A DNA stretch of 32,000 nucleotides from Rhodococcus rhodnii NBRC 100604 (GCF_001894925.1 NZ_BCXD01000022.1:1-32000), one strand, 5' to 3'; positions 1-20,423 are shown, counted from the stretch's first letter. Notes: generated by a model not told the origin, from the letters alone. A program made the numbers and translations.

Positions 1-181
1 AGTTAGTCGCCGCGTCGAGCGCGAGTCCCGCATCGGCGGCCGAGCCACGCGAGACGCGAGCGAGCAAGGTGCCGTCGATCGGTGAGCGGTCGTCGAATCG
101 ACGTGCAGACGACACCCGCTGGCCACCGATCCAGTGATCGGTGCTCACCACGACGCCGTCGACGTTCGCGAAGTTCATCAT
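1..181 (-). CDS. Aldehyde dehydrogenase family protein, N-terminal fragment (gene continues past the left edge)
   Basis: Not in the ORF track. My own reverse-strand translation from ATG 181-179 gives MMNFANVDGVVVSTDHWIGGQRVSSARRFDDRSPIDGTLLARVSRGSAADAGLALDAATN with no stops down to position 2. GGAGA Shine-Dalgarno at 191-187, 5 nt upstream. The HWIGG..V....F...SPIDG..LA.V pattern is the usual ALDH N-terminus. Confidence 0.6.
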   Translation of the reverse strand, partial: MMNFANVDGVVVSTDHWIGGQRVSSARRFDDRSPIDGTLLARVSRGSAADAGLALDAATN

Positions 182-246
182 GCTTGTCTCCTGGTTCGGG
201 CACCGGACGGTGCGCCGGGGACGAAGGGGCTACGGGACAGAACCCG

Positions 247-996
247 TCAGCCGAAATGCGATCCGCCGTTGACGTGCAGCGTCTGCCCGGTGACGAAGGA
301 CGATCCGCCGCTCACGAGATAGGCGACGGTTCCGACGAGATCGCCGGGGGTCTGCTCACGTTGCAGACAGCGCCCGGCGATCGCTCGGTCGCGCGCGCCG
401 GGACTGCGGGAGTGCAGGTCGTCGTCGGGGACGTAGTCGGGTGCGATCGCGTTGACCCGAATGTCGTCGGGGCCCAGTTCGCGTGCGAGCGACCGGGTCA
501 TCCCCCCGATCGCGGCCTTGGCAGCTGCGTAGTGCACGACGTTCGCCAGGCCCTTGTACGCGGTCGCGGAGGACACGTTGACGATCGAACCGCCACTGCT
601 CTTGCGCATCCACGGGACGACTGCGCGGATCGCGTTCCATGTGCCCTTGACGTTGATCTCGAAGCACGCGTCGAAATCGGACTCGGGGATCTCTTCGAAA
701 GGCCCCCGCACCATGGTCCGGAAGTAGCCGGCATTGTTCACGAGGGCGTGCACCGCGCCGAACTCCTCGTACGCACGACGTGCCATCGCCTCGAGCGTGT
801 CGACACTGCGCAGATCGACGTCGACTCCGATCGCACGAGAACCGTTCTCCCGCAACTGCGCAGCGGCCGCCTCGCTCCCCCGGAGATCGGCGACCACGAC
901 CGCCGCCCCCTCCCGCGCGAGCGCGGTGGCGTACGCCTTGCCCAGATGGACTGTCGCGCCCGTGACGACGACGACGCGTCCGTTCAGTGCACCCAT
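247..996 (-). CDS. Short-chain dehydrogenase/reductase (SDR); possible diol dehydrogenase of the cluster
   Basis: C-terminal 249 aa of track ORF 247..1473, starting at ATG 996-994 (MGALNGRVVVVTGAT...). NNAG motif and a catalytic S...YAAAK (YxxxK) are present. The glycine motif is atypical: TGATVHLG instead of TGxxxGxG. Confidence 0.85.
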   Translation of the reverse strand: MGALNGRVVVVTGATVHLGKAYATALAREGAAVVVADLRGSEAAAAQLRENGSRAIGVDVDLRSVDTLEAMARRAYEEFGAVHALVNNAGYFRTMVRGPFEEIPESDFDACFEINVKGTWNAIRAVVPWMRKSSGGSIVNVSSATAYKGLANVVHYAAAKAAIGGMTRSLARELGPDDIRVNAIAPDYVPDDDLHSRSPGARDRAIAGRCLQREQTPGDLVGTVAYLVSGGSSFVTGQTLHVNGGSHFG

Positions 997-1736
997 TGCC
1001 TCCCCCTCCTGTCGTTCGTATCGTGCGTGTCGTACGTGTCGTACGTGTCGTACGTGTCGTACGTGTCGTACGTGTCGGTGTCGGTGTTCGTGTCGGACCC
1101 GTCCGTCGGGGCCGGGCCAAGAGGCTCGCCCGGCCCGGTGTGCATCGGGGCGCGGTGATCGAAACTGTGGCGCCCGGTCCAGCGCTCCACCGGTTCGGCA
1201 TCGATTCCCAACAGATCGAGTGCTCGTACGACCGTGTGATCGACGATGTCCTGCACGGTGTGCGGACGGGTGTAGAACGCGGGAACCGGCGGCATCACGA
1301 TCGCGCCCGACGCGGTCGCCTCGGCCATGAGTCGAATGTGCCCTGCGTGCAACGGAGTCTCGCGGAGCAGCAGGACGAGTCGGCGACGCTCCTTGAGCGT
1401 GACGTCGGCCGCCCGCACGAGCAGGTTCTCGTCGTAGGCGTTCGCGACACCGGACAGCGTCTTGACGCTGCACGGCGCGACGAGCATGCCTGCGGTGCGG
1501 AAAGACCCGCTCGAGATCGCGGCGGCGAGGTCGCCGTCGGAGTACGTGTGCGTCGCGAGCGCCGTCACGTCGGCGACCGTCATCCCGGTCTCCTGAACGA
1601 TCGTCGCGCGGCCGCTCGACGAGACGACGAGATGCGTCTAGACACCGAGTGCCCGCAGCATCTCGAGCGCCCGGATACCGAGGACTGCGCCCGAGGCGCC
1701 CGAGATGCCGACGACGACGCGTCGCGAGGAGTCCAT
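984..1736 (-). pseudogene. ubiX: Flavin prenyltransferase UbiX interrupted by an in-frame TAG (1640-1638), with a 62-aa low-complexity C-terminal extension
   Basis: Minus strand from ATG 1736 reads MDSSRRVVVGISGASGAVLGIRALEMLRALGV-TAG-THLVVSSSGRATIVQETGMTVADV...SSGSF...APCSVKTLSG...RETPLH...PPVPAFY...ERWTG. It is colinear with UbiX/Pad1 proteins. The stop keeps the frame (track ORFs 1638..1940 and 984..1583 are in the same phase). There is a 1-nt gap to the upstream dehydratase stop. Confidence 0.8.
1011..1097. repeat. 9-bp tandem repeat: five perfect GTCGTACGT units (1029-1073) flanked by degenerate copies
   Basis: Read directly from the sequence. Perfect units at 1029-1037, 1038-1046, 1047-1055, 1056-1064 and 1065-1073. 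Degenerate units at 1011-1028 (gtcgttcgt, atcgtgcgt) and 1074-1097. Encodes (TYD)n in the ubiX frame. Every unit contains the palindrome CGTACG. Confidence 0.95.
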
Positions 1737-1737
1737 G

Positions 1738-3459
1738 TCAGCCTTTCGTCGTGGTGGGGAGGCAGAAGTCGAAGTCGCAGCCTTCGTCGGCCTGCAGGAC
1801 GTGATCGCGGTAGAGCCGGGAGTAGCCGCGCTCGTCGCCACATGCGGGCGGCTGCCACTCCTCCCTGCGCCGATCGAGTTCCTCGTCGGAGACGAGGAGC
1901 TCGAGCGAGCGCTGCCGCACCGACATCCGGATCCGGTCACCGTCCCGAACGAGGGCGAGCGGGCCCCCCACCGCGGCCTCGGGAGCGATGTGCAGCACGA
2001 TCGTGCCGTACGCCGTTCCGCTCATCCGCGCGTCCGAGATCCGCACCATGTCCTTGACGCCCTGCTCGGCGAGCACCTTGGGGATCGGGATGTAGCCCGC
2101 CTCGGGCATCGCCTCGGCGACCGGTCCCGCATTGCGCAACACGAGGACGTCGTCCGCGCGCACATCGAGATCGGGTGAGTCGATCCGGTCCGCCAGATCC
2201 TGCAGCGAATCGAAGACGACGGCGCGTCCTTCGCTCTCGAACAGCGACTCGTCCGCCGCCGAGCGCTTGAGGATCGCTCCACCGGGCGCGAGATTGCCCG
2301 AGAGCGAGACGATTCCGCCGACGACGGACACCGGTGTCGCCACCGGTCGGACGACCCGCTCGTCGCGCCACGGATCGGTGTCCGCGAGCACGTCGCGCCA
2401 GGTCGTTCCCGCCACCGTGGCGCAGTCGAGGTTCATCAGGTCACCGAGTTCGCGGAACACCGCGGGTACGCCGCCCGCGCGGTGGAAGTCCTCCATGTAG
2501 TGCTCGCCGGAGGGCTTGAGGTCGACGAGGACCGGAGTCGTGTCGCTCAGCCCGTTGAGTTCCTCTGCGGTGAAACCGAGGCCGAGACGACGTGCCATCG
2601 CGGTCAAGTGGATGACGGCGTTCGTCGAGCCACCGATCGCGAGCAGAACACGCAGGGCGTTGACGACCGAGTCCTTCGTGACGATCTCACTGGGCCGCAC
2701 CGCGACTCGAGCGAGCTGCGTCGCGAGCGCCCCACTCGCCTCGCCCGCTCGGAGGCGGTCCGCGTGCACGTTCGGGATCGCCGCCGTGCCCGGCAACGAC
2801 ATGCCGAGGGCTTCCGCGATGCACGCCATCGTGCTCGCGGTGCCCATCACCGCGCAGGTGCCCGACGTCGTCGCGAGATTTCCCTCGACGGCGGTGATCT
2901 GCGGCTCCGTGATCTCGCCGGCGCGGTACCTGCCCCAGAAGCGCCGGCAGTCGGTGCACGCACCGAGCCGTTCGCCGTGATAGCTGCCCGTCATCATCGG
3001 GCCGGTGACCACCTGTACCGCAGGCTTGTCCACCGAGAACGCACCCATCAACTGGGCGGGCACGGTCTTGTCGCACCCGCCCACGAGCACCACCGAGTCC
3101 ACGGGCTGGGCCCGCACCATCTCCTCGACGTCCATCGCCATGAGGTTGCGAAACTTCATCGACGTCGGATGGAGAAACGGCTCACCCAGCGAGATCGTCG
3201 GGAACGCCACGGGCAGCCCGCCCGCGAGCATGACGCCCCGCTCGATCGCCGCGACGAGTTCGGGCATCTGCCGGTGACAGTTGTTGAAACCGCTCTCCGA
3301 CGTGGCGATTCCGATCGTCGGACGGCTCAGGGCGTCCTCGCCGTATCCCATCGACTTGGTGAAGCTGCGCCGCAGATAGGCCGCGAAGCCGGGATCGCCG
3401 TAGTGGGTGAGATTGCCCGTCAGACCCTGCGGCCCGTCCGTGGACTCGGTGCCGGTCAT
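1738..3459 (-). CDS. IlvD/Edd family dehydratase (sugar-acid / dihydroxy-acid dehydratase type)
   Basis: 573-aa ORF. Family Fe-S and active-site motifs FNNCHRQ, VLVGGCDKTVP and TSGTCAVMGTASTM are present. Its ATG (3459-3457) overlaps the upstream gene stop as ATGA. Confidence 0.9.
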   Translation of the reverse strand: MTGTESTDGPQGLTGNLTHYGDPGFAAYLRRSFTKSMGYGEDALSRPTIGIATSESGFNNCHRQMPELVAAIERGVMLAGGLPVAFPTISLGEPFLHPTSMKFRNLMAMDVEEMVRAQPVDSVVLVGGCDKTVPAQLMGAFSVDKPAVQVVTGPMMTGSYHGERLGACTDCRRFWGRYRAGEITEPQITAVEGNLATTSGTCAVMGTASTMACIAEALGMSLPGTAAIPNVHADRLRAGEASGALATQLARVAVRPSEIVTKDSVVNALRVLLAIGGSTNAVIHLTAMARRLGLGFTAEELNGLSDTTPVLVDLKPSGEHYMEDFHRAGGVPAVFRELGDLMNLDCATVAGTTWRDVLADTDPWRDERVVRPVATPVSVVGGIVSLSGNLAPGGAILKRSAADESLFESEGRAVVFDSLQDLADRIDSPDLDVRADDVLVLRNAGPVAEAMPEAGYIPIPKVLAEQGVKDMVRISDARMSGTAYGTIVLHIAPEAAVGGPLALVRDGDRIRMSVRQRSLELLVSDEELDRRREEWQPPACGDERGYSRLYRDHVLQADEGCDFDFCLPTTTKG

Positions 3460-4436
3460 GCCGAGGCCCCGACCTTCAGCTCGTTGACCGCTCCCTTCGG
3501 CTGCTCGCCCGCGAGCGTGTCGAGCAGATTCTGCACCGCGAGATCGGCCATCGCACAGCGGGTCTCGACCGTCGCGCTACCGATGTGAGGCAGCAGGACG
3601 ACGTTCTCTAGCGTCATGAGCGGGTCCTCCGCGGGCAGCGGCTCGGTGGTCATGACGTCGAGCGCTGCGCCTGCGATCGCACCACTGCGCAGGGCGTCGA
3701 CGAGCGCCGGTTCGTCGATGAGCGTGCCGCGCGCCGGGTTCACGAAGAAGGCACTCTCCTTCATCGCCGCGAACTCGGCGGCACCGATCGATCCGGCGGT
3801 CGATGCGTCCAGCGGCACCAGCACGATGACGACGTCCGACTGCGCGAAGAGGTCGTCACGCGAGACGTAGCGGGCGTCGCCGGGCACCTCGCCGTCGATG
3901 GGTGTCCGGTTGTGGTAGGTCACGTCCATACCGAGCGCGTGCAGCACCGGCGCGACCTTCTTGCCGATCCGGCCCAGCCCGAGGATGCCGACCGTCTTGC
4001 CGTGGACGTCGGTCGTCAACGGGAAGGGGTTTCCGGCGACCCACTGGCCGGCGCGCACGAACCGTTCCGCGCGGGAGAGCCCACGCACCGCGTTGAGCAC
4101 CGCACCGACGGTCAGCGCCGCGACGGCATCGTCGAGGACACCCGGGGTGTTGCAGATCTGGACGCCACGCTCGGTCGCCGCGGGCACCTCGATGTTGTCG
4201 TAGCCGACCGCGTAGTTGGACACGGTCTTCAGCGACGGCAGTTCCGCGAGTACCGACGCGGTCACCGGCTGCTTCACGGTCGTGAGCCAGCCGACGATAT
4301 CGGCGTGCTCACCGACGGTCTCGGCGGTGAGCACGGTGGACGACGGCAGGGTCACCACGTCGTACTCGGCCTCGATGCGGCCGAGGAGATCGTCCGCGAG
4401 GGGCGCGGAGACGAGGACCTTCTGCTTGTTCTGCAT
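3456..4436 (-). CDS. D-isomer-specific 2-hydroxyacid dehydrogenase (glyoxylate/hydroxypyruvate/2-ketoacid reductase type)
   Basis: 326 aa from ATG 4436-4434 (MQNKQKVLVSAP...) inside track ORF 3456..4670. NAD motif GLGRIGKKV. Catalytic Arg (NPARG) and His (LPHIGSAT) contexts are present. Confidence 0.88.
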   Translation of the reverse strand: MQNKQKVLVSAPLADDLLGRIEAEYDVVTLPSSTVLTAETVGEHADIVGWLTTVKQPVTASVLAELPSLKTVSNYAVGYDNIEVPAATERGVQICNTPGVLDDAVAALTVGAVLNAVRGLSRAERFVRAGQWVAGNPFPLTTDVHGKTVGILGLGRIGKKVAPVLHALGMDVTYHNRTPIDGEVPGDARYVSRDDLFAQSDVVIVLVPLDASTAGSIGAAEFAAMKESAFFVNPARGTLIDEPALVDALRSGAIAGAALDVMTTEPLPAEDPLMTLENVVLLPHIGSATVETRCAMADLAVQNLLDTLAGEQPKGAVNELKVGASA

Positions 4437-4465
4437 GTTTGCTGCTCCTGTTGTTCGAGAGTCGG

Positions 4466-4786
4466 TCAGATCTGGTTCTCGGGAATCGTCACCGCGATCC
4501 CGTCGAGGCCCGCGGTGGCCTCGATCTGGCACGCGAGCCTGCTGGTCGGCTCGCACTCGGGGCTGAGCCCCACGAGGACTTCTTCCGTGGGATCGAGCGG
4601 GCCGGATGCGTCGAACCACTGCTGGTCGACGATCACGTGGCACGTTCCGCGGATCGCGCCGCCTCCGCACTCGGCGACGATTCCCTCGACGCCCTCCTGC
4701 CGGGCCGCCTCCATGAGGGTCAGACCCTCGTCGACGTCCAGCACGACCGCGGGATCACCCGACTTGTAGTGAAAGGTCGCTTTCAT
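4466..4786 (-). CDS. [2Fe-2S] ferredoxin, adrenodoxin/putidaredoxin type, lacking the second canonical Cys ligand
   Basis: 106 aa from ATG 4786 (MKATFHY...), with AGGTGA 5 nt upstream; GTG 4795 is an alternative start. Fold-typical GLTLMEAA, AECGGGAIRGTCHV and SRLACQI. The expected C-x5-C-x2-C reads C-x5-R-x2-C here. Confidence 0.8.
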   Translation of the reverse strand: MKATFHYKSGDPAVVLDVDEGLTLMEAARQEGVEGIVAECGGGAIRGTCHVIVDQQWFDASGPLDPTEEVLVGLSPECEPTSRLACQIEATAGLDGIAVTIPENQI

Positions 4787-5972
4787 CCGATTCACCTGCC
4801 TTCACTGTGGTGGCGAGTTCACGCAGTCCGAGCGCGAACTGCCGTGGGCTTCCGAAGGCTTCGACGCTGACGAGTGCACCTCGGCAGCTACGACGAACGA
4901 CGAATCCGCCGTCCTCGGTCTCCTCGACGCTGTCGACGACGCTGTCGGTCGCACCGACGAGACCTGCGATGCGCAGTTGGGTTCCGTACTGCTCCGACCA
5001 AAAGGTCTCCGGGCGGAGGGCCGGCGGCGGGGTGCCGGCGATCGCCGCTGCGGCGATGCGGGCCTGCGCCATCGCACTCGCGACGGACTCGACACCCGCC
5101 GACACGCCGGAGGCGGTCCGCGTGATCGCGACGTCGCCGATCGCATAGATGTCGGGATCCGATGTGCGACAGCACTCGTCGACGACGATACCCCGTGCCG
5201 TCTCGATACCGCTCGCGGCGGCGAGCTCGTCACGCGGGCACGCGCCGATCGCGAGGACCGCCCAGTCGACGTCCAGCGTCCGGCCACCGCGCAGCGCGAT
5301 CTCGATCCCGCCTCCGGACTCGACCGCACCGCGCCCACCGGTCACGGCTGTGACTCGCTCGCCGAGAACGAACCGTATCCCGCTGTCCTCGTGGATCTTT
5401 CGAATCCGTTGCGCAGTGTAGCGAGACACCCGCCCCGGCAGCACATCGGCCGTCGACTCCACGACGGTCACCGAGCTCACCAGTCCCGAGAGCGAACTCG
5501 CCGCTTCGAGGCCGAGGAAGCTGCCGCCGATCACCGCGACGCGATCACCCCGACGTGGCGCCACGGCGAGAGAATCGTCGAGCGTCCGGATCGTGTGGAT
5601 CCGGGACGACCCGGCCCACTCCGGGCGGATCGCATCGGCACCCGTCGCCAGGACCAGTGCGTCGTAGGCGATCTCCTCGCCCGCGGCGGTCCGCACGACC
5701 GACCCCTCACGATCGATCGCGACGACCGGATCACCGATCCGCACCGAGACGGACTTCGCTTCGTAGGCGCGCTCCGAACGGAGCGTGAGCTTCGCCGGAT
5801 CGGTGGCACCGCCGAGAACGCCCTTCGACAGCGGTGGCCGTTCGTACGGGAGATGCGCTTCACCGCACACGATCGTGATCGGGTCGCCGTATCCGGCGGA
5901 GCGCAGCGCGAAGGCGACCTCGCACCCGGCCTGTCCCCCACCGACGACGACCGTTCCCGCTCGCGAGGCCAT
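4755..5972 (-). CDS. Ferredoxin--NAD(P)+ reductase (FAD-dependent pyridine nucleotide-disulfide oxidoreductase) of the dioxygenase system
   Basis: 405 aa from ATG 5972-5970 (MASRAGTVVVGGGQAGCEVA...) inside track ORF 4755..6404. FAD motif GGGQAG, second dinucleotide motif VIGGSFLGLE, AIGD near the C-terminal third. The start overlaps the beta-subunit stop by 1 nt (TGATG). Confidence 0.88.
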   Translation of the reverse strand: MASRAGTVVVGGGQAGCEVAFALRSAGYGDPITIVCGEAHLPYERPPLSKGVLGGATDPAKLTLRSERAYEAKSVSVRIGDPVVAIDREGSVVRTAAGEEIAYDALVLATGADAIRPEWAGSSRIHTIRTLDDSLAVAPRRGDRVAVIGGSFLGLEAASSLSGLVSSVTVVESTADVLPGRVSRYTAQRIRKIHEDSGIRFVLGERVTAVTGGRGAVESGGGIEIALRGGRTLDVDWAVLAIGACPRDELAAASGIETARGIVVDECCRTSDPDIYAIGDVAITRTASGVSAGVESVASAMAQARIAAAAIAGTPPPALRPETFWSEQYGTQLRIAGLVGATDSVVDSVEETEDGGFVVRRSCRGALVSVEAFGSPRQFALGLRELATTVKAGESDESDLSLQVG

Positions 5973-6538: not shown

Positions 6539-7887
6539 CGGGTGTGCTCGCTCTCGGGCATCGGGATCTCCTTCCACGAGGACGCCTTCATGAACTGCGC
6601 CCACCGCCGGTAGAACGCGCGCGCGTTCTCTTCGTTGAACTCCCCGTTCTCGACGGCGTTGTCGAGTTCGGGCACGGGCCGCGCGTGACCGAGGCCCATC
6701 TGGTAGTTGAAAAAGAGTTGCCTCGACCGCCAGCCTTTGCTCGCCCGCGTGGCGTACGCCCAGTTCTCCATGTCGTCGGACTCGGTGAGGCCACCCGGGC
6801 CGGAATAGCGCATGTAGTACCGCCTCGCCTCGTCCTTCACGACCTCCGGCGCGTCCTCGTCGACGAGGAAGATCCGCCACATCTCCGTCTCGGTCGCGCT
6901 GATCGGGTGCACCCACGCGATCGTTCGCGGCTGCCGTCCGTGAAAAGACATGCTGGGAAAGATCGTTCCCACACTCATCGCGACGCGCATGTCGTCGCCG
7001 AGGCGCTCGACCCGGCTCTCGTGGACCTTGCGGTAGTACTCCTGCACCTCGGGGTTCTCACCCCAATTGCCCGAGACCCCGTCGTACTCCTCGTGGAAGG
7101 GCAGCTGCCCGATCACACCGTGGCCGTGCTCGGGGAAGCACAGCGTGATGCGGTTCCCGAAGCTGTCGCGGCGGCCTTTGCCGCTGGGACCGATTCCTAC
7201 CGCATCGACCGAACGGTGGCTCACGTCGTGGTACAGATCGCCGATGAAGTTCTCCGGGATCATCTTCCAGTTCGCCTGGACCCGCCACTTCTGCACACCG
7301 CCGATGACCTCGGCGCCCCCCGGGCGCCCGTCGCGATAGTCGAGCGCGTAGTCGAGGTACAGCCGCATGTCACCGAGGTAGTCGAGCAGCGGCGGCGCCT
7401 CCTCGTCCCAGGACGCCCACACCGTGCCCTTGTAGATCTCGACGCGGGGAACCGAGATCAGTCCCCACTTCTTCTTGTCGAGTTCCGAGTGGTAGTGAGT
7501 GTCGTAGCCGGGAACGTTGTACAACTCGCCGGGCCGATCGACGAGACGACCGTCGGTCGAGAAGCTCCAGCCGTGGTACGGGCACGTGAAGGTGCGTGTG
7601 TTCCCCTGGTCCGACCGGCAGAGCTTCATGCCCCGATGTGTGCAGGTGTTGAGCAGTACGTGAATCTCCCCGGCCTTGTCACGCGTGAGGATCACGGGAT
7701 CGGTTCCCATACGCGACTGGAAGTAGTCGTTGGGTTCCGGTACGAGACCGACGTGACCCACGAAGAGCCAAGCCCGGCCGAAGACGTGCTCGAGTTCCTG
7801 CTCGAATAGTTCGTCGTCGACGAAGATCTCGCGAGCGACGACGCCCTCGACATCGACATCGACCAGTTCGTCGATGGACTTCTTCAT
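6535..7887 (-). CDS. Aromatic ring-hydroxylating dioxygenase, large (alpha) Rieske subunit
   Basis: 450 aa from ATG 7887-7885 (MKKSIDELV...) inside track ORF 6535..9045. Rieske motif CTHRG-x17-CPYHGW. Mononuclear-iron region ENFIGDLYHDVSH and the later ESDDMENW. GAAGGAG Shine-Dalgarno upstream. Confidence 0.92.
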   Translation of the reverse strand: MKKSIDELVDVDVEGVVAREIFVDDELFEQELEHVFGRAWLFVGHVGLVPEPNDYFQSRMGTDPVILTRDKAGEIHVLLNTCTHRGMKLCRSDQGNTRTFTCPYHGWSFSTDGRLVDRPGELYNVPGYDTHYHSELDKKKWGLISVPRVEIYKGTVWASWDEEAPPLLDYLGDMRLYLDYALDYRDGRPGGAEVIGGVQKWRVQANWKMIPENFIGDLYHDVSHRSVDAVGIGPSGKGRRDSFGNRITLCFPEHGHGVIGQLPFHEEYDGVSGNWGENPEVQEYYRKVHESRVERLGDDMRVAMSVGTIFPSMSFHGRQPRTIAWVHPISATETEMWRIFLVDEDAPEVVKDEARRYYMRYSGPGGLTESDDMENWAYATRASKGWRSRQLFFNYQMGLGHARPVPELDNAVENGEFNEENARAFYRRWAQFMKASSWKEIPMPESEHTR

Positions 7888-7940
7888 AGCGACTCCTTCG
7901 TGAGGGCTGTTCGCGAACGGACCGTGCGGTGCTCGGGCGA

Positions 7941-9419
7941 TCAGCCCATGCCGCCGGTGCAGACGTATTTGATCTCGGTGTACTCGTCGAGCCCCCAGTG
8001 CGAGCCCTCCCTGCCGATGCCCGACTCCTTGACGCCACCGAACGGCGCCACCTCGGTGGAGACCGAGAAGTCGTTCATCCCGACCATGCCGAACTCGAGC
8101 CCCTCCGCGATCCGGGTGAGCCGTCGGTAATCGGTCGTGTAGCAGTAGGCGACGAGCCCGTACGCGGTCGCGTTGGCGCGGCGGACCACCTCGTCGTCGT
8201 CGTGGAAGCGCATCACCGGAGCGATCGGGCCGAACGTCTCGTCGCTGCAGCACCGCATCGCGTCGTCGGCGTCGAGCAGGACCGTCGGCGCGAAGAACGC
8301 CGGTCCGTGCTCGTGAGCGCCGCCGCCGCACGCGAGCGTCGCACCGCGCTCGACAGCATCGTCGACGAGCGACGACATCGACTGCGCTGCAACGGGGTTG
8401 ATCATCGATCCCACCTCGACCCCGGCAACCGCGCCGTTGCCCACGGCGAGAGCGCGGACGCGAGCGACGAAGGCCGCGACGAAACGGTCGTAGATGCCGT
8501 CCTGGACGTAGATGCGGTTCGTCGCGACGCACGCCTGGCCGGCGTTGCGGAACTTCGAGCGCACGGCGCCCTCGACGGCCGCGTCGAGTTCGGCGTCGTC
8601 GCACACGATGAACGGAGCATTGCCGCCCAGCTCGAGCGAGACACGCTTGACGGTGCCGGCCGATTGCTCGCCCAGGAGCTTGCCGACCCGGGTAGACCCG
8701 GTGAAGGTGAGCTTGCGGACGAGTGCACTCGACGTGAGCTCCCCGCCGATCTCGCGTGCAGTGCCGGTCACGACGTTGAACACACCCGCGGGGACGCCCG
8801 CACGATCGGCGAGCCGGGCCAGGGCGAGCGCCGACAGCGGCGTCTCCTCCGACGGCTTGACGACCATCGTGCATCCGGCTGCCAGCGCGGGCCCGGCCTT
8901 GCGTGTGATCATCGAACTCGGGAAGTTCCACGGTGTGATCGCGGCGACGACACCGACCGACTGACGGATCACCTGGAGCCGGCGGTCCGCGCGATCGGTG
9001 GGGATCGTCTGGCCGTACGCCCGGCGTCCCTCTTCGGCGAACCACGTGAGAAAAGCTGCGGACGCGCCGATCTCGGCACGGGACTCCGCGAGCGGCTTAC
9101 CCTGCTCGGCGGTGAGCAGCGCGGCGAGCTCCTCCTCGTGATCCGCAATGAGGTCCGCCCAGCGGCGGAGCACCGTCGACCGCTCTCCGGCGGTGCGCGC
9201 CCGCCAGTCGTTCCACGCGGCGTGCGCTGCCTCGATCGCGACACGTGTCTCGTCGGCGCCCATCTTCGGCACCGATCCGATACGCCTTCCGGTCGCCGGG
9301 TCGACGACCTCGACGACCTCACCCGAGTCGGCGGCCGTCCACCGTCCGTCCACGTACGCGCGGTCCAGTGCCGCGGCGGTGAGATCCACGTCCGTGCGGA
9401 CGTCTGCTGCCAGTGTCAC
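7941..9419 (-). CDS. gabD: NAD(P)+-dependent succinate-/glutarate-semialdehyde dehydrogenase-like aldehyde dehydrogenase
   Basis: Track ORF 7941..9452. The preferred start is GTG 9419, with GAAGGA 8 nt upstream; GTG 9452 is the alternative. Long stretches match E. coli GabD as I recall it: ITPWNFPSSMITRKAGPALAAGCTMVVKPSEETP, VGKLL...VSLELGGNAPFIV, FRNAGQACVATNR (catalytic Cys), DETFGP. Confidence 0.88.
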   Translation of the reverse strand: MTLAADVRTDVDLTAAALDRAYVDGRWTAADSGEVVEVVDPATGRRIGSVPKMGADETRVAIEAAHAAWNDWRARTAGERSTVLRRWADLIADHEEELAALLTAEQGKPLAESRAEIGASAAFLTWFAEEGRRAYGQTIPTDRADRRLQVIRQSVGVVAAITPWNFPSSMITRKAGPALAAGCTMVVKPSEETPLSALALARLADRAGVPAGVFNVVTGTAREIGGELTSSALVRKLTFTGSTRVGKLLGEQSAGTVKRVSLELGGNAPFIVCDDAELDAAVEGAVRSKFRNAGQACVATNRIYVQDGIYDRFVAAFVARVRALAVGNGAVAGVEVGSMINPVAAQSMSSLVDDAVERGATLACGGGAHEHGPAFFAPTVLLDADDAMRCCSDETFGPIAPVMRFHDDDEVVRRANATAYGLVAYCYTTDYRRLTRIAEGLEFGMVGMNDFSVSTEVAPFGGVKESGIGREGSHWGLDEYTEIKYVCTGGMG

Positions 9420-9495
9420 GTCATCAGTCCTTCGAAAGAGTGCTGTCCTCACATCGCGCGAGAGAACGAGTTCGGATGTGCGGCGGCGACCGCGG

Positions 9496-10920
9496 TCAGC
9501 GCGTGATCCACTCGCGCAGGTCGATGGCGGCCGCGCCGGGAATCACGGCGCGCTCGGGACGATCCGACGCCCGCGCCGCGATCGGAGCCGTCGCGACGAT
9601 CCCCATGCGCGCGGTCGTCCCGGTGTCGGTGAGGCGCTTGTTCACCGGATTCCCCTTCCCACCGGAGATCACCACGAGGTCCTCGTCGGCGCGGAACCAT
9701 GTCGCGATCGCACGTTCGACGGCCTGCGCGTCGAACGGATCGACATCCCCGTCGACCACCACGACGAGCGTGACATCACGGTGAGCCGCGAAGGCCGCGA
9801 GCACCGTGTCCTTGCCGTCGCCGTCGTGCGCGGTGTCGACGGACACCACGACGTGGAACTTGTTGAGCCCGCCGCCGGTCACGTTGATCGCCCGTACCCC
9901 GGGGATGCCGCCGCGCATCGCGGTGAGCATCGCGGGCTCGTTGGGCAGACCCATGAGCAGCAACTGCTCGGACGATCCCGAGATCATGCCCTGGTACACG
10001 GGATCGCGCCGGTGCGTGACGGCGTCGATCCGCACGACGTGGCGCTGCGTGACGCCTTTGTAGAACCCCGCGAACTCCGCGAACGGCCCCTCGTTGCCAC
10101 GCTCGTTCGGCAGTACGTGCCCTTCGAGCACGTACTCGGCACGAGCGGGCACCATGAGCGAGTTCGTGACGCCGCGCACGAGTTCCTCAGGCCGCCCGCG
10201 CAATCCGCCGGCGATACCGTACTCGTCGGCCCCGAAAGGGACCGCCGACCCCGAGGTTCCCGCCGCGAAGCGCAGCGGCGCATCCACACCCACGACGATC
10301 GAGACCGGCATCGGCAGGTTCTGTTCCTCGTAGGCATCGAGGATCCGGTGCAGATGCCGCGGGACGATCACCATCCGCAGTTCACGCGGCCCCTTGACCT
10401 GCATCCGGTGGTACGACAGATTGCGCTGCCGTGTCTCGGGATGCTCGGCGGTGACGATTCCCGACGTGATGTAGGGGCCACCGTCGTGCTCGAAGTGGGT
10501 GAGGACGGGCAACGCGGTCAGGTCGACCTCGTCGCCCGTGCGCACCGTCTCGTGAACGGGCGCATCCGTCACCTCGATCGGCGAGATCGGACACGACAAC
10601 GCCCGCGCGTAGCGATCCGTGAGCGATCCGGCGGTCACGCCCAGCGCGAGTGCCACCCGTTCGCGTGTGGCGTCCGTTCCGATCACGACGCTCGCACCGC
10701 GGTGGCCGACTGCGCGGAACATCAGCGCGGGGCCCGCCGTCACGTCGGCCCGATGAGCGATCGCCGCGAGCTCGTGGTGCGCCGCGACCGTGCGGTCGAC
10801 GATCGCGAGTTCGCCTGCCGCATCGAGCCGTTCGATCTGCTCGCGCAACGACGTCACCGCTGCCGTCGTTGTGGTCGCCGTGTCCGAGTTTGCCGTCGTG
10901 TCCGAGTTCACCGCTGCCAT
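9496..10920 (-). CDS. UbiD-family (prFMN-dependent) decarboxylase
   Basis: 474 aa from ATG 10920 (GAGGTGA upstream) inside track ORF 9496..10962. Family-typical NLSYHRMQV, ADEYGIAGGLRG and EGPFAEFAGFY. The N-terminus carries a Thr/Ser/Asn-rich extension (MAAVNSDTTANSDTATTTTAA). Confidence 0.88.
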   Translation of the reverse strand: MAAVNSDTTANSDTATTTTAAVTSLREQIERLDAAGELAIVDRTVAAHHELAAIAHRADVTAGPALMFRAVGHRGASVVIGTDATRERVALALGVTAGSLTDRYARALSCPISPIEVTDAPVHETVRTGDEVDLTALPVLTHFEHDGGPYITSGIVTAEHPETRQRNLSYHRMQVKGPRELRMVIVPRHLHRILDAYEEQNLPMPVSIVVGVDAPLRFAAGTSGSAVPFGADEYGIAGGLRGRPEELVRGVTNSLMVPARAEYVLEGHVLPNERGNEGPFAEFAGFYKGVTQRHVVRIDAVTHRRDPVYQGMISGSSEQLLLMGLPNEPAMLTAMRGGIPGVRAINVTGGGLNKFHVVVSVDTAHDGDGKDTVLAAFAAHRDVTLVVVVDGDVDPFDAQAVERAIATWFRADEDLVVISGGKGNPVNKRLTDTGTTARMGIVATAPIAARASDRPERAVIPGAAAIDLREWITR

Positions 10921-10930
10921 TTCTGTCACC

Positions 10931-11692
10931 TCACACCACAGCGCGATCCTGCTCGGGAACACCGAGCAGTCCCATCACCCGCTCGTATGCGGCCTCGACG
11001 GCCGGGTCGGTCAGGCTGCGGGGATGCTCGGCGTCGATCGTGATGTGGTCGAGAACGCGGCCGGGCCGCGCGGACAACACGATCACCGATGTCGCGAGCG
11101 AGATCGCCTCCATCACGTTGTGGGTGACGAACACGATCGTCGAACGACGTTCCAGCCACAGGTCACGCAGGAACAAACGCTGCGTGCGCGCCGTCATCTC
11201 GTCGAGCGCGGAGAACGGCTCGTCCATGAGCAGCATCGCCGGCTCCGTCGCGAGCGCGCGGGCTATCGAGACTCGCTGCTGCATTCCGCCCGAGAGCGCC
11301 GCCGGGTAGAAATCGCCGTAGTCGGAGAGGCCGGCGGCAGCGAGGTACTCGGAGGTCTGCTGCTGGAACGGAACCCGCCTGTTCTGCGACCTGGCCGCTC
11401 TCGTGATCTCGAGGTTCTCCTGGACCGTCCGCCACGGCAGCAGCCGGGCGCGCTGGAACACGAATCCGATCTCCTCGGGCGACGGCGCGTCCAGTAGTCC
11501 GCTCGTCGGCTTCTGCAGTCCCGACAGGATGTTGAGGAGCGTCGACTTGCCGCTGCCGGAAGGGCCGAGGATCGCGACGAACTCACTGTCCCCGACGGTG
11601 AAGGAGATGTCGTCGAGCACCTGCAACTGTTCTCCGCCGGGAACCGCGAAGCTCTTGCACACGCCGTCGAAGGTGATGATGGGTTCAGGCAC
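10931..11692 (-). CDS. ABC transporter ATP-binding protein, NitT/TauT (nitrate/sulfonate/taurine) family
   Basis: 253 aa with a GTG start. Walker A GPSGSGKST, signature LSGGMQQRVSIARAL, Walker B LLMDEPFSALD. 8-nt overlap with the permease stop. Confidence 0.9.
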   Translation of the reverse strand: MPEPIITFDGVCKSFAVPGGEQLQVLDDISFTVGDSEFVAILGPSGSGKSTLLNILSGLQKPTSGLLDAPSPEEIGFVFQRARLLPWRTVQENLEITRAARSQNRRVPFQQQTSEYLAAAGLSDYGDFYPAALSGGMQQRVSIARALATEPAMLLMDEPFSALDEMTARTQRLFLRDLWLERRSTIVFVTHNVMEAISLATSVIVLSARPGRVLDHITIDAEHPRSLTDPAVEAAYERVMGLLGVPEQDRAVV

Positions 11693-12584
11693 GCTGTTCT
11701 CCTTCCTCGATCACGGTGGACTTTCCTCCGCCGAACTTGCCCATCGGGCGTTCGCGCCACAGGAAGGCGCGCCGCTCGAGCGGCCGCAGTACGACGTACT
11801 CGAAGAGAGCGACGAAGATCATGAAGCCGATCGTCCAGGCGATCACCGCGGTGAGGTCGTAGAGCTGGAACGCCCGGTTCACCTGATAGCCGACGCCGTC
11901 CGAGAGCCCGAGCAGCTCGATCATCACGACGTACTTCCAGCAGACACCGAACGCCTGTCGTGCCGCCGTGATCGCCGGCCCCGCGAGCTGCGGGAGGATG
12001 ACGTGCCGGAACTGCGCGTAGCGGGAGTAGCCGAAGACCTGCGACATCTCCTGCAGATCGGTGTCGAGTCGTTTGGTTCCCTGCCAGAAGTTCACGGCGA
12101 TCATCGGCACCGCGAGGTATCCCATCGCGATGATGGCGCTCGACTCGTTGAGGCCGAGCGCGATGAGGATGATCATCGCGATGAAGATCCCCGGCTGCGA
12201 CATCCCGGTGACGATGAACAGCTCGAAGAACGACTCGCCCTTGCGCGACCGCCCCATCGCCGTTCCGATGAGGAAGGCGGTGACGTACGCGATCGCGAAT
12301 CCGCCGAGCACGCGGCGGACCGTGAGCCACATCTGCTCGTAGAACTGTGAGCCCGTCAGCAGTTCGTACAGCGCACCGAGCGTGTCCGGGACGGTGGGCA
12401 ACACCGAACTGAGGACGGTGGTGCTCGCGACGACCCAGAGCAGCAGGACCGTGAGGAGAAAGGCCAGCCGAAAGATCATGGCCGAGCCGAGGATCCGTGA
12501 GATCAGCGACGGCGCCGACTCGTTCTCCGTGGTCCGCGTGCGCTCCGTACGAGGGCTCGTGTCCTTGGGCGCGGTAACGGTCAC
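11685..12584 (-). CDS. ABC transporter permease, NitT/TauT family
   Basis: 299-aa hydrophobic ORF with multiple TM segments and a BPD-type EAA-like loop region (MSQVFGYSRYAQFRHVILPQLAGP). GTGA overlap with the binding-protein stop; the start is therefore tentative. Confidence 0.85.
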   Translation of the reverse strand: MTVTAPKDTSPRTERTRTTENESAPSLISRILGSAMIFRLAFLLTVLLLWVVASTTVLSSVLPTVPDTLGALYELLTGSQFYEQMWLTVRRVLGGFAIAYVTAFLIGTAMGRSRKGESFFELFIVTGMSQPGIFIAMIILIALGLNESSAIIAMGYLAVPMIAVNFWQGTKRLDTDLQEMSQVFGYSRYAQFRHVILPQLAGPAITAARQAFGVCWKYVVMIELLGLSDGVGYQVNRAFQLYDLTAVIAWTIGFMIFVALFEYVVLRPLERRAFLWRERPMGKFGGGKSTVIEEGEQRA

Positions 12585-13582
12585 GACTGCTCACCTCCAC
12601 CGTCGAACAGCACCATCGTGTCGATGTCGTGCTCGCGCTGCAGCAGACCGATCTCCCGCGCGCGCTCGAGTTCCTCTTGCGCGAAGGTCAGGTTCTCCTC
12701 CGTGTAGGCGGGAATGAGCAGGGGCGCGAATCGCTCGAACAGCAGGTCGGTGCCCTCGGGCGCCGTGAGATTCACCGCGTCCGCGTTCGCCTCGTAGATC
12801 GACTTGTCGGAACCGGCGATCTCCGTGGCGCGCGCGGCGAGGCGCTGCATGAGGTCCGCATCGTTCTCCTCGAGCCAGTCCGATCGCGCGGCCCAGTTCT
12901 GCGACGGCGCGAGCGACTGTCCCGCTTCCTCCCAGTAGTGCGCGGTATGGAACAGCTCGCGGTAGCCACCCTCGGTCAGCATGCGCGTGGTGTTCGGCTC
13001 GTATTGGGTGATCGCCTCCATCTCCCCGGTGTCGAGCAGACCCTGGAGCAGTCCGCCCGAATCGGCGAGCATGAGCCGATAGTCCTCCTCCATGTCGATC
13101 CCCATGTCCTGCAGGACGAAGTACGACTCGGAGTAGACGCTGACGGTCCGATGCAGCGACGCGACCGGCTCGCCGAGAAGGTCCTCGGCCGTCCGGTACG
13201 GCGAGTCCTCCTCGACGATCATCGACGAGTTGGCGGCCCAGGTGGGCGAGATGCCGACGACGTCGTGACCCTGTTCCTGTGCGGAGGCGAGGTTGACGAT
13301 GCTCATGAAGCCCATGTCGATGTCGCCGTTGGTGAGAGCGATCTGGGCGGTCTTCTGCGCCATCGGCTTGTACTCGACCTCCACGCCGAGTTCGTCGCCG
13401 GCCTGCTCGAGCGCCTCGACCATGAGGGCCGCGATCCCGACATCCGAACCGCCGACCACGACCTTGGGTCCGCTCGACTCGGATTCGGCGGAGCCGCATG
13501 CCGTCAGGGCCAGTACAGTGGCGACCCCGACGCCGAGTGCGCGCAGACCACGGCCTGTACGGGGTGTGTTCTCAGGAGCCAT
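12581..13582 (-). CDS. ABC transporter substrate-binding lipoprotein (NMT1/SsuA/TauA-like)
   Basis: 333 aa. Signal peptide with lipobox LALTAC. GGAAAGG Shine-Dalgarno 7 nt upstream of ATG 13582. First gene of the transporter set. Confidence 0.8.
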   Translation of the reverse strand: MAPENTPRTGRGLRALGVGVATVLALTACGSAESESSGPKVVVGGSDVGIAALMVEALEQAGDELGVEVEYKPMAQKTAQIALTNGDIDMGFMSIVNLASAQEQGHDVVGISPTWAANSSMIVEEDSPYRTAEDLLGEPVASLHRTVSVYSESYFVLQDMGIDMEEDYRLMLADSGGLLQGLLDTGEMEAITQYEPNTTRMLTEGGYRELFHTAHYWEEAGQSLAPSQNWAARSDWLEENDADLMQRLAARATEIAGSDKSIYEANADAVNLTAPEGTDLLFERFAPLLIPAYTEENLTFAQEELERAREIGLLQREHDIDTMVLFDGGGEQS

Positions 13583-13747
13583 GTGTGGGCCTTTCCTGAC
13601 CGATTGGTTGACTCTGCCCCGCGCTCGTCGAACGAAACCCGGATTCGGCTGCTTCGGCGAATTCCGGTGCGAGAGCGGGCGTTCGACGGCAGTTTCCGTG
13701 ATGTTCGGGTGGTGGTCACCGCCGTTGGGACAACCATAGGATCGAGA

Positions 13748-15307: not shown

Positions 15308-15374
15308 ACAACCTCCAGTTTGTCCGGCGAGGATAACCAGAGACCGCGGAGTGTGCATTCCGGCGAATCGGACA

Positions 15375-17716: not shown

Positions 17717-17738
17717 GGCGAGGCGTCTCTTTCTGTGA

Positions 17739-19282: not shown

Positions 19283-19301
19283 ACAGGTTAGGCTTTCCTC
19301 A
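19283..19301. promoter_or_regulatory. Candidate IdeR/DtxR iron box
   Basis: acAGGTTAGGCTTtCCTcA against the IdeR consensus TWAGGTWAGSCTWACCTWA gives 15 of 19 matches. The left half-site is essentially perfect. It ends 18 nt upstream of the siderophore-binding protein start. Confidence 0.45.
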
Positions 19302-19319
19302 TTCGGAAGGAGTTTTTCT

Positions 19320-20321: not shown

Positions 20322-20337
20322 CCCGCTCGCAACCTCG

Positions 20338-20406: not shown

Positions 20407-20423
20407 TACGTGCTGGAGGAATC

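Follow-up and report, generated by a model that had tools for sequence, protein, structure and literature searches.

A Conserved Actinobacterial Gene Cluster, Possibly for Heteroaromatic Acid Catabolism, and Its Probable Decay in Rhodococcus rhodnii

What substrate is served by an operon that combines a prenylated flavin mononucleotide (prFMN) decarboxylase of the UbiD family, a Rieske dioxygenase, and enzymes of sugar-acid type? We addressed this question for a 32,000-nt stretch of the Rhodococcus rhodnii NBRC 100604 genome (hereafter the window; coordinates are window positions), in which such an operon lies on the minus strand. The left 11 kb of the window match, base for base, contig QRCM01000001.1 of R. 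rhodnii assembly GCA_008011915.1, from which the sequence beyond position 1 was taken, and the UbiD protein is 100% identical to an R. rhodnii entry. We propose, with a probability of roughly 0.4, that this is a conserved actinobacterial catabolic operon for a carboxylated heteroaromatic or pseudo-aromatic acid, with a PucR-type regulator, and that it is being lost in R. rhodnii. The enzyme families are all known; their combination and the implied chemistry appear to be new.

The Locus

An earlier, sequence-only reading of this DNA had described a 14-gene coupled operon. Fourteen co-directional minus-strand genes do run leftward from position 13582, but the UbiX gene is interrupted by an in-frame stop codon and the last gene is present in the window only as a 60-codon stub. 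The family assignments of that reading were borne out by Pfam and NCBIfam, and the genes, in order of transcription, are as follows:

12581-13582, minus strand: ATP-binding cassette (ABC) substrate-binding lipoprotein, NMT1/phosphonate-bd type (Pfam Phosphonate-bd, SBP_bac_3, and NMT1, all weak)
11685-12584, minus strand: ABC permease, putatively NitT/TauT-type (Pfam BPD_transp_1)
10931-11692, minus strand: ABC ATPase (Pfam ABC_tran)
9496-10920, minus strand: UbiD-family prFMN decarboxylase, Q-N-K subclade, HmfF-related (TIGR00148, PDB matches, signature residues)
7941-9452, start uncertain (9389, 9419, or 9452), minus strand: aldehyde dehydrogenase 1 (ALDH1), similar to succinate-semialdehyde dehydrogenase (SSADH) (TIGR01780, GabD model)
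6535-7887, minus strand: Rieske oxygenase (RHO) alpha subunit (Pfam Rieske and Ring_hydroxyl_A)
5972-6538, minus strand: Rieske oxygenase beta subunit (Pfam Ring_hydroxyl_B, E 1e-40)
4755-5972, minus strand: FAD ferredoxin reductase (FdR), glutathione-reductase type (Pfam Pyr_redox_2 and Reductase_C)
4466-4786, minus strand: [2Fe-2S] ferredoxin (Fdx), adrenodoxin/putidaredoxin-type (Pfam Fer2)
3456-4436, minus strand: D-isomer-specific 2-hydroxyacid dehydrogenase (2HADH), GhrB/glyoxylate-reductase-like (Pfam 2-Hacid_dh and 2-Hacid_dh_C)
1738-3459, minus strand: IlvD/Edd-family dehydratase, sugar-acid subfamily (NF004784; PDB 8ej0 and 5j83)
984-1736, minus strand: UbiX flavin prenyltransferase pseudogene (in-frame TAG at 1638-1640; family-level match)
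247-996, minus strand: short-chain dehydrogenase/reductase (SDR) oxidoreductase (NCBIfam SDR models)
2-181, minus strand: stub of a second aldehyde dehydrogenase (ALDH2), first 60 codons (translation; gene split by an insertion sequence [IS] beyond the window edge)

All nine junctions claimed earlier were reproduced exactly from open reading frame (ORF) coordinates. Overlaps join the binding protein to the permease (GTGA, 12581-12584), the permease to the ATPase (8 nt, 11685-11692), oxygenase alpha to beta (ATGA, 6535-6538), beta to the reductase (1 nt, at 5972), the reductase to the ferredoxin (32 nt, 4755-4786), 2HADH to IlvD (ATGA, 3456-3459), and UbiX to the SDR (13 nt, 984-996); gaps of 10 nt (10921-10930) and 1 nt (at 1737) separate the ATPase from UbiD and IlvD from UbiX. 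The remaining gaps are 53 nt between ALDH1 and alpha, 29 nt between the ferredoxin and 2HADH, 65 nt between the SDR and ALDH2, and 43-106 nt between UbiD and ALDH1, depending on which ALDH1 start is chosen. No intrinsic-terminator-like site was found between the operon genes; the sole terminator-like match (6954-6971) falls within the RHO alpha coding sequence and is below chance expectation. This gene spacing suggests that the operon is read as one transcript.

Conservation of the Gene Set

How far does this gene set extend beyond R. rhodnii? The PucR gene and all 14 genes are collinear, at 59-88% amino acid identity, in a Rhodococcus sp. (two assemblies), Nocardia rhamnosiphila, Nocardia speluncae, and Nocardia flavorosea. 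In these four species RHO alpha is 83-88% and the SDR 74-77% identical to the R. rhodnii proteins, and UbiX, the ferredoxin, and (within reach of the loci) ALDH2 are intact. Through more distant UbiD or oxygenase homologues we found the core in a second arrangement in four more loci, from Mycobacterium sp. NPDC004974, a Pseudolysinimonas metagenome-assembled genome (MAG), and two further assemblies. There, the order is alpha-beta-Fdx-2HADH / PucR / ALDH1-FdR-IlvD-UbiX-UbiD, at times with a second aldehyde dehydrogenase. The importers of these reshuffled clusters differ (an SBP_bac_5 ABC system, an SBP_bac_1 ABC system, or a major facilitator superfamily [MFS] transporter) and the SDR is missing, while ALDH1 is always present (orthologues at 55-57% identity). 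An Actinomycetales MAG keeps UbiD, PucR, Fdx, 2HADH, IlvD, and UbiX, with RHO alpha elsewhere on the contig and an extra molybdenum hydroxylase subunit.

The core that survives reshuffling consists of the four-component oxygenase, 2HADH, IlvD, ALDH1, UbiD/UbiX, and PucR; the importers and two extra oxidoreductases (the SDR and ALDH2) vary by lineage. The retention of this core across two gene orders marks it as a real functional unit, and the conservation that the sequence-only reading had asked for is thus present. That reading had also set IlvD and 2HADH apart as enzymes that normally belong to sugar-acid or branched-chain routes, but both are among the most faithfully co-conserved members. 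Its remark that a ring-cleavage dioxygenase is missing was borne out: the window encodes none, and neither do the 10 kb past position 1 or the related loci. In the literature searched, we likewise found no characterized orthologous cluster and no defined substrate for one.

Decay of the R. rhodnii Copy

Is the operon functional in R. rhodnii? The sequence-only reading implied that it is intact, but three of its genes carry lesions. First, the UbiX frame contains a TAG at 1638-1640 (codon 33; LRALGV*THLVVSS, the asterisk marking the stop), where all four orthologues have a conserved Glu in the context G(V/I)E(T/S)HLV. The residues past the stop match the UbiX family, scoring 199-202 bits against cut-offs of 109 and 188, but the part downstream of the TAG would lack the GISGASG FMN-binding loop and the frame as a whole is not intact. 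Of two R. rhodnii assemblies, one has no UbiX call and the other has UbiX broken into 32 + 196 aa. Second, Cys46 of the ferredoxin is replaced by Arg (codon 4649-4651), the window reading CGGGAIRGTCHV where all four orthologues read CGGGAICGTCHV. Adrenodoxin-type ferredoxins bind their [2Fe-2S] cluster through a C-x5-C-x2-C...C motif, of which Cys46Arg, seen in R. rhodnii only, removes the second ligand, so that fewer than four Cys ligands are left. Third, ALDH2 is broken after codon 60 by an IS5/IS427-like element of ~870 bp that lies directly left of position 1 (10999-11875 in the R. rhodnii locus L001). It contains a pair of overlapping ORFs (DUF4096 and DDE_Tnp_1), ends in 18-bp terminal inverted repeats (CTGATCGTTTCAGAATGA), and is flanked by a duplicated TAA target. 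Excising it in silico restores ALDH2 (...AATKAFPEW...) exactly as in Nocardia, the remaining 426 aa lying past the element.

These lesions are not sequencing errors, since they are common to two assemblies. Across 11.1 kb, one 9-nt tandem-repeat unit is all that separates the second assembly, GCA_020054395.1, from the window, and it bears the same TAG, Cys46Arg, and IS end. Its contig stops 130 nt inside the IS, which suggests that the element is repeated in the R. rhodnii genome. The tandem repeat (1010-1077, 7.6 copies by Tandem Repeats Finder) has the consensus TGTCGTACG on the plus strand and GACACGTAC on the gene strand, coding DTY, and is located shortly ahead of the SDR start, where the UbiX frame runs on into an abnormal C-terminal extension.

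Has the whole operon long been under relaxed selection? Lineage-private substitutions, counted across 4,739 aligned codons, are fewer in R. rhodnii than in the other Rhodococcus (249 versus 362), which speaks against this explanation and indicates that the decay is recent. Only UbiD and UbiX are relatively enriched in R. rhodnii private substitutions (44 versus 34, against 205 versus 328; odds ratio 2.1, Fisher p = 0.003). The catalytic motifs of UbiD, RHO alpha, ALDH1, and IlvD look intact. Given the nonsense codon in UbiX, the R. rhodnii operon is predicted to be unable to provide prFMN. With the ferredoxin ligand lost and ALDH2 split by the IS as well, the pathway is probably inactive in this species and the operon a recently pseudogenized relic. 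If so, three independent lesions in one operon of a kissing-bug gut symbiont cleanly capture how a host-associated actinobacterium has recently been losing a pathway.

The Oxygenase and 2-Hydroxyacid Dehydrogenase

What kind of oxygenase does the operon encode? RHO alpha has both the Rieske motif (CTHRG...CPYHGW) and the mononuclear-iron ligands (DLYHDVSH, H-x4-H); together with the beta subunit and separate Fdx and FdR, these features are those of an alpha3beta3-type RHO. Its best PDB matches are HcaE/BphA, and it scores 346 bits against a cut-off of 830 for the NCBIfam equivalog of HcaE 3-phenylpropionate dioxygenase, so it is not assigned to that enzyme. Orthologues at 61-70% identity occur in Mycobacterium, Achromobacter, Bordetella, and others, and hundreds of proteobacterial homologues fall at 57-70% (among them those of Achromobacter, Bordetella, Pigmentiphaga, Azospirillum, Aminobacter, and Belnapia). 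The 2HADH, whose top NCBIfam matches (glyoxylate reductase and GhrB) are below cut-offs, co-occurs with the oxygenase in every locus, the proteobacterial ones included.

In Bordetella petrii a complete 8-gene island sits between the lpx/rnhB and ppsA housekeeping genes and encodes alpha, beta, Fdx, FdR, 2HADH, a 68-aa ORF, a TctC carboxylate-binding protein, and GntR, with no UbiD; Achromobacter mucicolens has the same gene set. The island proteins alpha, beta, Fdx, FdR, and 2HADH are 66, 57, 57, 43, and 51% identical to their window counterparts. So minimal an island implies that the oxygenase and 2HADH suffice to make an imported carboxylate usable by general metabolism. This pair is the evolutionary nucleus of the system and is widespread beyond Actinobacteria.

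On plasmids, the best match is a paralogous Rhodococcus qingshengii cluster (oxygenase 52%, 2HADH 39%, and SDR 47% identity), which also has an ABC importer, two aldehyde dehydrogenases, and a homologue of the 68-aa ORF. It includes a 5-dehydro-4-deoxyglucarate dehydratase of the KdgD subfamily (above the NF002958 cut-off), tying the oxygenase/2HADH pair to sugar-acid-type lower enzymes there too. Three of the other ~50% plasmid oxygenase matches (H2, H4, and H5) were opened; each is part of a phthalate-type operon, in which a class II aldolase decarboxylase and a dihydrodiol dehydrogenase adjoin the oxygenase.

Gram-positive-type phthalate 3,4-dioxygenase (pht) operons resemble the window in their alpha/beta oxygenase (~50% identical), anionic aromatic substrate, separate ferredoxin, and glutathione-reductase-type reductase. 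However, their decarboxylase is of class II aldolase type, their dihydrodiol dehydrogenase is a different one, their ferredoxin is a small 3Fe-4S protein, and they lead to protocatechuate cleavage, whereas the window has UbiD/UbiX, 2HADH, an IlvD-type dehydratase, an adrenodoxin-type ferredoxin, and no cleavage route. Neither the class II aldolase-type dihydroxyphthalate decarboxylase nor the pht dihydrodiol dehydrogenase is present in the window or in any orthologous locus.

The small conserved ORF (68-69 aa, motif NPQDG.WL..RY...P.LVD..EQ..FATD), which has no family assignment, is seen at 7199-7405 in locus L021, 14599-14808 in L014, and 10872-11036 in L018. In the proteobacterial islands it lies between the ferredoxin and 2HADH genes. 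On the R. qingshengii plasmid it follows the beta gene, unannotated, and it is absent from window-type clusters. A relationship to 4-oxalocrotonate tautomerase was considered and rejected, as the ORF has no Pfam match and no N-terminal Pro.

The UbiD Subclade

Where does the decarboxylase stand among characterized UbiD enzymes? It matches PF20695, PF01977, and PF20696 and scores 310.5 bits against a TIGR00148 cut-off of 244.85. Its nearest PDB relative is HmfF of Pelotomaculum thermopropionicum (PtHmfF, 6h6v/6h6x; E 5.6e-79, ~40% identity), followed by AroY, AnInD, and VdcC, so that the placement among characterized members suggested by the sequence-only reading puts it next to HmfF. PhdA (7pda; E 4.2e-35, 125 bits) is far behind these four, and a PhdA/phenazine route was rejected on this remote relationship. 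The alignment with PtHmfF keeps SYHRMQV (Arg) and NEGPFAEFAG (two Glu), the Arg/Glu...Glu ionic network that adjoins prFMN (PMC8988006).

HmfF and HmfG belong to the hmf furan pathway (Cupriavidus basilensis; P. thermopropionicum 6h6v). The likeness to the loci studied here lies in the UbiD + UbiX pair and in a heteroaromatic acid, carboxylated next to the heteroatom, as the substrate of HmfF. The difference is that furoyl-CoA synthetase, molybdenum furoyl-CoA dehydrogenase, and HmfH oxidase are missing here, with a Rieske oxygenase and sugar-acid enzymes instead; the hmfABCDE-type set (AMP-ligase, three-subunit molybdenum dehydrogenase, and hydrolase) is absent from all loci examined.

Three pocket positions (PtHmfF 296/304/331) were compared across 120 homologues and PtHmfF. 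Arg304 and Arg331 reportedly bind the distal carboxylate of 2,5-furandicarboxylate (FDCA) in HmfF. The residues sort the family into the following groups:

Window clade: Q-N-K (17 sequences)
Sister clade: H-Y/F-K (14 sequences)
Canonical HmfF clade: H-R-R, i.e., His296/Arg304/Arg331 (28 sequences)
Large, partly archaeal group: H-H/R-W (55 sequences)

Assignment as a canonical HmfF/FDCA decarboxylase was rejected, because the key His is not kept and there are no hmf genes. By its residues, the window protein is a UbiD-family relative of HmfF with an altered pocket and not demonstrably an FDCA decarboxylase.

Two further contexts concern this part of the UbiD family. In the one sister-clade (H-Y/F-K) context inspected, UbiD and UbiX are accompanied by a three-subunit molybdenum hydroxylase, an ABC importer of NMT1 type, a PNPOx-like protein, and an FMN dehydrogenase, making this a second uncharacterized type of UbiD-centered cluster. 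On a Solirubrobacterales metagenome contig (134-9264), a Q-type UbiD and UbiX stand with an aldehyde dehydrogenase, an FAD amine oxidase, a PotD-type ABC importer, and RidA; no oxygenase, 2HADH, or IlvD lies beside this UbiD.

Sugar-Acid Enzymes and Importer

The IlvD protein scores 797 bits for NF004784 (cut-off 539), which places it in the aldonate-type subfamily, and 653 for the L-arabinonate dehydratase equivalog (cut-off 882), short of that specific function. Its NNCH, GGCDK, and GTCAVMG motifs are visible, and in the PDB it comes nearest to 8ej0 and to the L-arabinonate dehydratase 5j83. ALDH1 falls just under the TIGR01780 SSADH cut-off (642.2 versus 646.35) and further under that of NF008415 (674.7 versus 828), with E 7e-203 for the GabD model. 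In lower D-glucarate/Weimberg-type sugar-acid routes, an IlvD/Edd-family aldonate dehydratase or KdgD acts ahead of alpha-ketoglutarate semialdehyde dehydrogenase. These routes share with the window an IlvD/Edd aldonate-type dehydratase, a GhrB-like 2-ketoaldonate-type reductase, and an omega-semialdehyde dehydrogenase, but the enzymes that oxidize the sugar or aldonate are absent here. Since the sugar-acid enzymes are joined instead to an oxygenase and a prFMN decarboxylase, the implied source of the "sugar acid" is an opened ring.

The importer finds its best matches among NitT/TauT-type families, at low scores. The top NCBIfam matches of the permease (SaoP, SsuC, NtrB, and TauC) are all below cut-offs, those of the ATPase (SaoA and TauB-type) are far below equivalog cut-offs, and the sole PDB relative of the binding protein is SsuA, a weak match (E 0.002).

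A Possible Pathway

How might these enzymes work together? Because there is no cleavage dioxygenase and the oxygenase is always paired with 2HADH, an aldonate-type dehydratase, and an omega-semialdehyde dehydrogenase, we propose that the ring opens spontaneously. The oxygenase would cis-dihydroxylate the carboxylate-bearing C=C bond that adjoins the ring heteroatom; a 2-carboxylate or 2,5-dicarboxylate of furan or pyrrole is the candidate substrate. The resulting hemiketal or carbinolamine would collapse, opening the ring without a cleavage enzyme to give a 3-hydroxy-2-oxo acid. The 2HADH would then reduce the 2-oxo group to yield a 2,3-dihydroxy acid, the IlvD-type enzyme would dehydrate this diol to a 2-keto-3-deoxy acid, and ALDH1 would oxidize the terminal semialdehyde to 2-oxoglutarate. 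UbiD/UbiX would strip one carboxyl, conventionally while the ring is still closed and not yet dioxygenated, turning the dicarboxylate into the monocarboxylate as HmfF does, or, less conventionally, after ring opening, on an open-chain dienol formed after the dehydratase step. The carboxylate itself may arise from a hydroxymethyl or formyl group that the SDR and ALDH2 oxidize. With 2-furoate or pyrrole-2-carboxylate as a C5 substrate, exactly the core enzymes would lead to 2-oxoglutarate. From a C6 diacid (FDCA or pyrrole-2,5-dicarboxylate), the oxygenase and 2HADH would produce 5-dehydro-4-deoxyglucarate, which would account for both the minimal proteobacterial island and the KdgD-bearing paralogous cluster.

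The ring-opening step has a precedent in reaction type. Angular dioxygenation of dibenzofuran and carbazole by class IIA/III Rieske enzymes places a hydroxyl on the carbon bonded to the ring O or N, after which ring opening of the hemiacetal is spontaneous; electrons reach dibenzofuran dioxygenase, too, through a putidaredoxin-type ferredoxin and a glutathione-reductase-type reductase. The angular enzymes differ in that their substrates are tricyclic and neutral and extradiol cleavage of the remaining ring follows.

Several observations weigh against the proposed heteroaromatic acid operon. Its chemistry is read from enzyme families and gene co-occurrence, and the literature searched contains no paper tying these gene families to a defined substrate. 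The HmfF specificity His is Gln in the window UbiD and in all 18 members of its subclade, and the Arg conserved in the HmfF clade is Asn, making FDCA doubtful as the UbiD substrate; His296/297 is key to furan-type specificity in HmfF, according to the HudA paper (PMC7976604). The nearest oxygenase relatives in annotated clusters (~50%) belong to phthalate-type operons, whose substrates have a carbocyclic ring. In Proteobacteria, orthologues of the oxygenase at 66% identity operate without UbiD, a poor fit to decarboxylation as the first step unless specificities differ. The order import, decarboxylate, dihydroxylate put forward in the sequence-only reading is therefore not established: the UbiD-free islands of B. 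petrii and Achromobacter mean that UbiD may act before or after the oxygenase and 2HADH. Finally, PucR, the adjacent aminotransferase, and a GabD-like aldehyde dehydrogenase could equally fit an N-heterocycle whose degradation ends in succinate semialdehyde.

A wider generalization is possible, although we regard it as rather doubtful. The oxygenase and 2HADH would form a widespread but unrecognized "ring-opening" module of Actinobacteria and many Proteobacteria that turns furan or pyrrole 2-carboxylates or 2,5-dicarboxylates into sugar-acid intermediates (5-dehydro-4-deoxyglucarate or a C5 analogue) without a cleavage dioxygenase or CoA. The Q-N-K UbiD would then be either a new heteroaromatic dicarboxylate decarboxylase or, more radically, a prFMN enzyme that acts on the dienol of an open-chain 2-oxo diacid and replaces KdgD.

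If true, the proposed pathway would be a new aerobic route for heteroaromatic acids, in which an oxygenase and a reductase alone reach central sugar-acid metabolism. FDCA, a monomer of bioplastics, would be among the candidate substrates, as would furan acids from fungi and the Maillard reaction and the carboxylates of pyrrole or pyridine. Functions would follow for a large uncharacterized Rieske oxygenase family (1,750 database proteins with E <= 1e-100 to the Achromobacter member) and for a new UbiD subclade, and the intact orthologous clusters in culturable type strains allow direct testing.

Alternative Explanations

Could the substrate instead be a pyridine acid? In this unlikely but best-surviving alternative, UbiD removes a carboxylate flanking the N of dipicolinate (pyridine-2,6-dicarboxylate) or a related compound, the oxygenase hydroxylates and opens the ring, and ammonia is lost. 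Dipicolinate is isosteric with FDCA, with two carboxylates flanking the heteroatom, and so remains chemically reasonable; an HmfF-like UbiD in which His has become Gln would suit a ring N. PucR regulators and a neighboring aminotransferase also suit a nitrogen compound. Actinobacterial dipicolinate degraders exist (Rhodococcus sp. 23C1 and Mycobacterium frederiksbergense 23ON, genes unknown; PMC11472048). In Alcaligenes, DipD carries out the initial hydroxylation, which depends on O2, and alpha-ketoglutarate is among the known products; both facts fit this route, while the functions of the other dip genes are unknown (PMC11472048). Like the route considered here, the dip cluster of Alcaligenes faecalis JQ135 starts by hydroxylating a heteroaromatic 2,6-dicarboxylate with the help of O2, but its regulator is the GntR/FadR-type DipR, with a GTATAC operator reported in all dip clusters (PMC11472048), whereas the window regulator is PucR. 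At the closest proteobacterial oxygenase loci, GTATAC sites number zero in B. petrii and one, inside a coding sequence, in Achromobacter. The taxa do not match either, as A. faecalis, Bordetella pertussis, and Bordetella bronchiseptica, all dip carriers, are missing from the list of oxygenase homologues. The window oxygenase family is therefore probably not DipD, and we rejected the published dip cluster as an orthologue of the oxygenase module, keeping dipicolinate only as a rival substrate. Moreover, a pyridine route would yield a C7 or C6 chain that needs a C-C hydrolase or enzymes of the 4-oxalocrotonate branch, which are absent from the core.

A second alternative, distinctly improbable in our judgment, moves UbiD behind ring opening in Actinobacteria as a rule. 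In every lineage, the oxygenase and 2HADH would make 5-dehydro-4-deoxyglucarate from a heteroaryl 2,5-dicarboxylate, which keeps the function of a 66%-identical module constant across phyla. Proteobacteria would proceed with their own KdgD and alpha-ketoglutaric semialdehyde dehydrogenase (KGSADH). In Actinobacteria, IlvD would form 2,5-dioxoadipate, UbiD would decarboxylate its dienol (2,5-dihydroxymuconate, an open-chain FDCA analogue) to 2,5-dioxopentanoate, and ALDH1 would deliver 2-oxoglutarate. Such a scheme accounts for the altered HmfF pocket residues, for the IlvD-UbiX-UbiD adjacency in four loci, and for an aldehyde dehydrogenase always standing beside UbiD, with the KdgD-bearing paralogous cluster as the alternative solution. 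The amine oxidase, RidA, and aldehyde dehydrogenase near the same UbiD clade on the Solirubrobacterales contig would likewise form a context that makes 2-oxo acids and consumes aldehydes. The whole scheme is nevertheless conjectural, and we know of no UbiD enzyme that decarboxylates an enolized 2-oxo acid. In Fdc1, alpha-hydroxycinnamate/phenylpyruvate forms a dead-end adduct that traps prFMN.

Phthalate- or hydroxybenzoate-like catabolism of a carbocyclic aromatic acid is very unlikely. It would have the oxygenase form a cis-dihydrodiol, 2HADH or the SDR rearomatize it, UbiD act as AroY/VdcC do, ring cleavage be encoded elsewhere, and IlvD and the aldehyde dehydrogenases serve other ends. The ~50%-identity oxygenase homologues in pht-type operons with class II aldolase-type decarboxylases and TctC transporters speak for it, as does the clear relationship of AroY and VdcC to the window UbiD. 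But the oxygenase and UbiD keep IlvD, 2HADH, and ALDH1 as partners in two independent gene orders and three actinobacterial families, no locus contains a cleavage dioxygenase or class II aldolase, and in the B. petrii island the oxygenase and 2HADH are the only enzymes. To our knowledge, there is no dihydrodiol dehydrogenase of the 2HADH family.

That the locus is a mosaic, in which a gamma-aminobutyrate (GABA)/5-aminovalerate module (aminotransferase, PucR, SSADH-like aldehyde dehydrogenase, and glutaryl-CoA enzymes) merely adjoins unrelated aromatic and sugar-acid genes on the same strand, is extremely improbable: PucR, a class-III aminotransferase, and a GabD-like aldehyde dehydrogenase do resemble actinobacterial gabT/gabD regulons, and the acyl-CoA dehydrogenase (ACAD) and CoA-transferase occur in only two of five genomes, but the core genes stay together through full reordering and across families, many junctions overlap by 1-32 nt, and the reshuffled clusters lack the aminotransferase while always having ALDH1.

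Regulator, Promoter Region, and Flanking Genes

Where does the operon begin? The sequence-only reading placed its start at 13582, but a tightly spaced, co-directional run continues upstream to 19133:

17739-19133, minus strand: class-III aminotransferase (Pfam Aminotran_3, E 1e-124; stop overlaps the ACAD start region)
16523-17764, minus strand: acyl-CoA dehydrogenase, ACAD (NCBIfam ACAD models)
15375-16526, minus strand: family III CoA-transferase (top NCBIfam match succinate--glutarate CoA-transferase, E 1.6e-104, below cut-off)
13748-15358, minus strand: PucR-family transcriptional regulator (weak PmfR match; orthologues with Pfam PucR and HTH_30)
13583-13747, minus strand: intergenic region, probable promoter/operator (conserved blocks in a five-species alignment)

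The probable ATG of the CoA-transferase, at 16526, overlaps the ACAD stop as ATGA (16523-16526), and PucR starts 16 nt past the CoA-transferase stop. A PucR gene lies inside every related cluster, with orthologues at 74-79% identity in four species, and the aminotransferase stands upstream of it in all four collinear relatives (73-79% identity). ACAD and the CoA-transferase are found only in the window and in N. rhamnosiphila, where ACAD is 83% identical. The aminotransferase/ACAD/CoA-transferase set is translationally coupled and looks like a 5-aminovalerate/glutarate or GABA module.

The 165-nt spacer between PucR and the substrate-binding protein gene contains, right behind the PucR stop, two blocks strongly conserved between Rhodococcus and Nocardia, TATGGTTG.CCCA.CG.CGG and CACGG.AAC.GC.GTCGA, and a conserved ribosome-binding-site region. 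It is the probable operon promoter/operator and a candidate PucR operator. No Rfam family matched the spacer, and the search thus gave no riboswitch or other RNA clue to the ligand.

On the other side, the IS and the rest of ALDH2, whose best scores are to HpaE and 2-hydroxymuconate-semialdehyde dehydrogenase models, are followed by a thiamine pyrophosphate (TPP) enzyme and a KshA-like Rieske oxygenase (13154-15995 in locus L001) and then by divergent TetR and IclR regulators. As the sequence-only reading had recommended, the 10 kb left of position 1 was inspected for extradiol dioxygenase or hydrolase genes, and none was seen. The TPP enzyme is acetolactate-synthase-like (NF005760, 579 bits, above cut-off); it was rejected as a pathway member, being absent from the other loci and not orthologous to the TPP enzyme in the Actinomycetales MAG cluster. 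A metagenome scan with ALDH2 for downstream context returned a best match of 55% identity and no orthologous clusters.

The right part of the window contains an MFS sugar-type transporter (20373-21857, plus strand), 1-deoxy-D-xylulose-5-phosphate (DXP) synthase (21861-23894, minus strand), a LuxR-type response regulator within 24679-25944 (minus strand), and a protein with TRAM and U5-methyltransferase matches in the 3' part of a long ORF (28583-31939, minus strand). The ORFs at 19299-20393, 23947-24663, 25954-26694, and 26691-27758 have no Pfam match.

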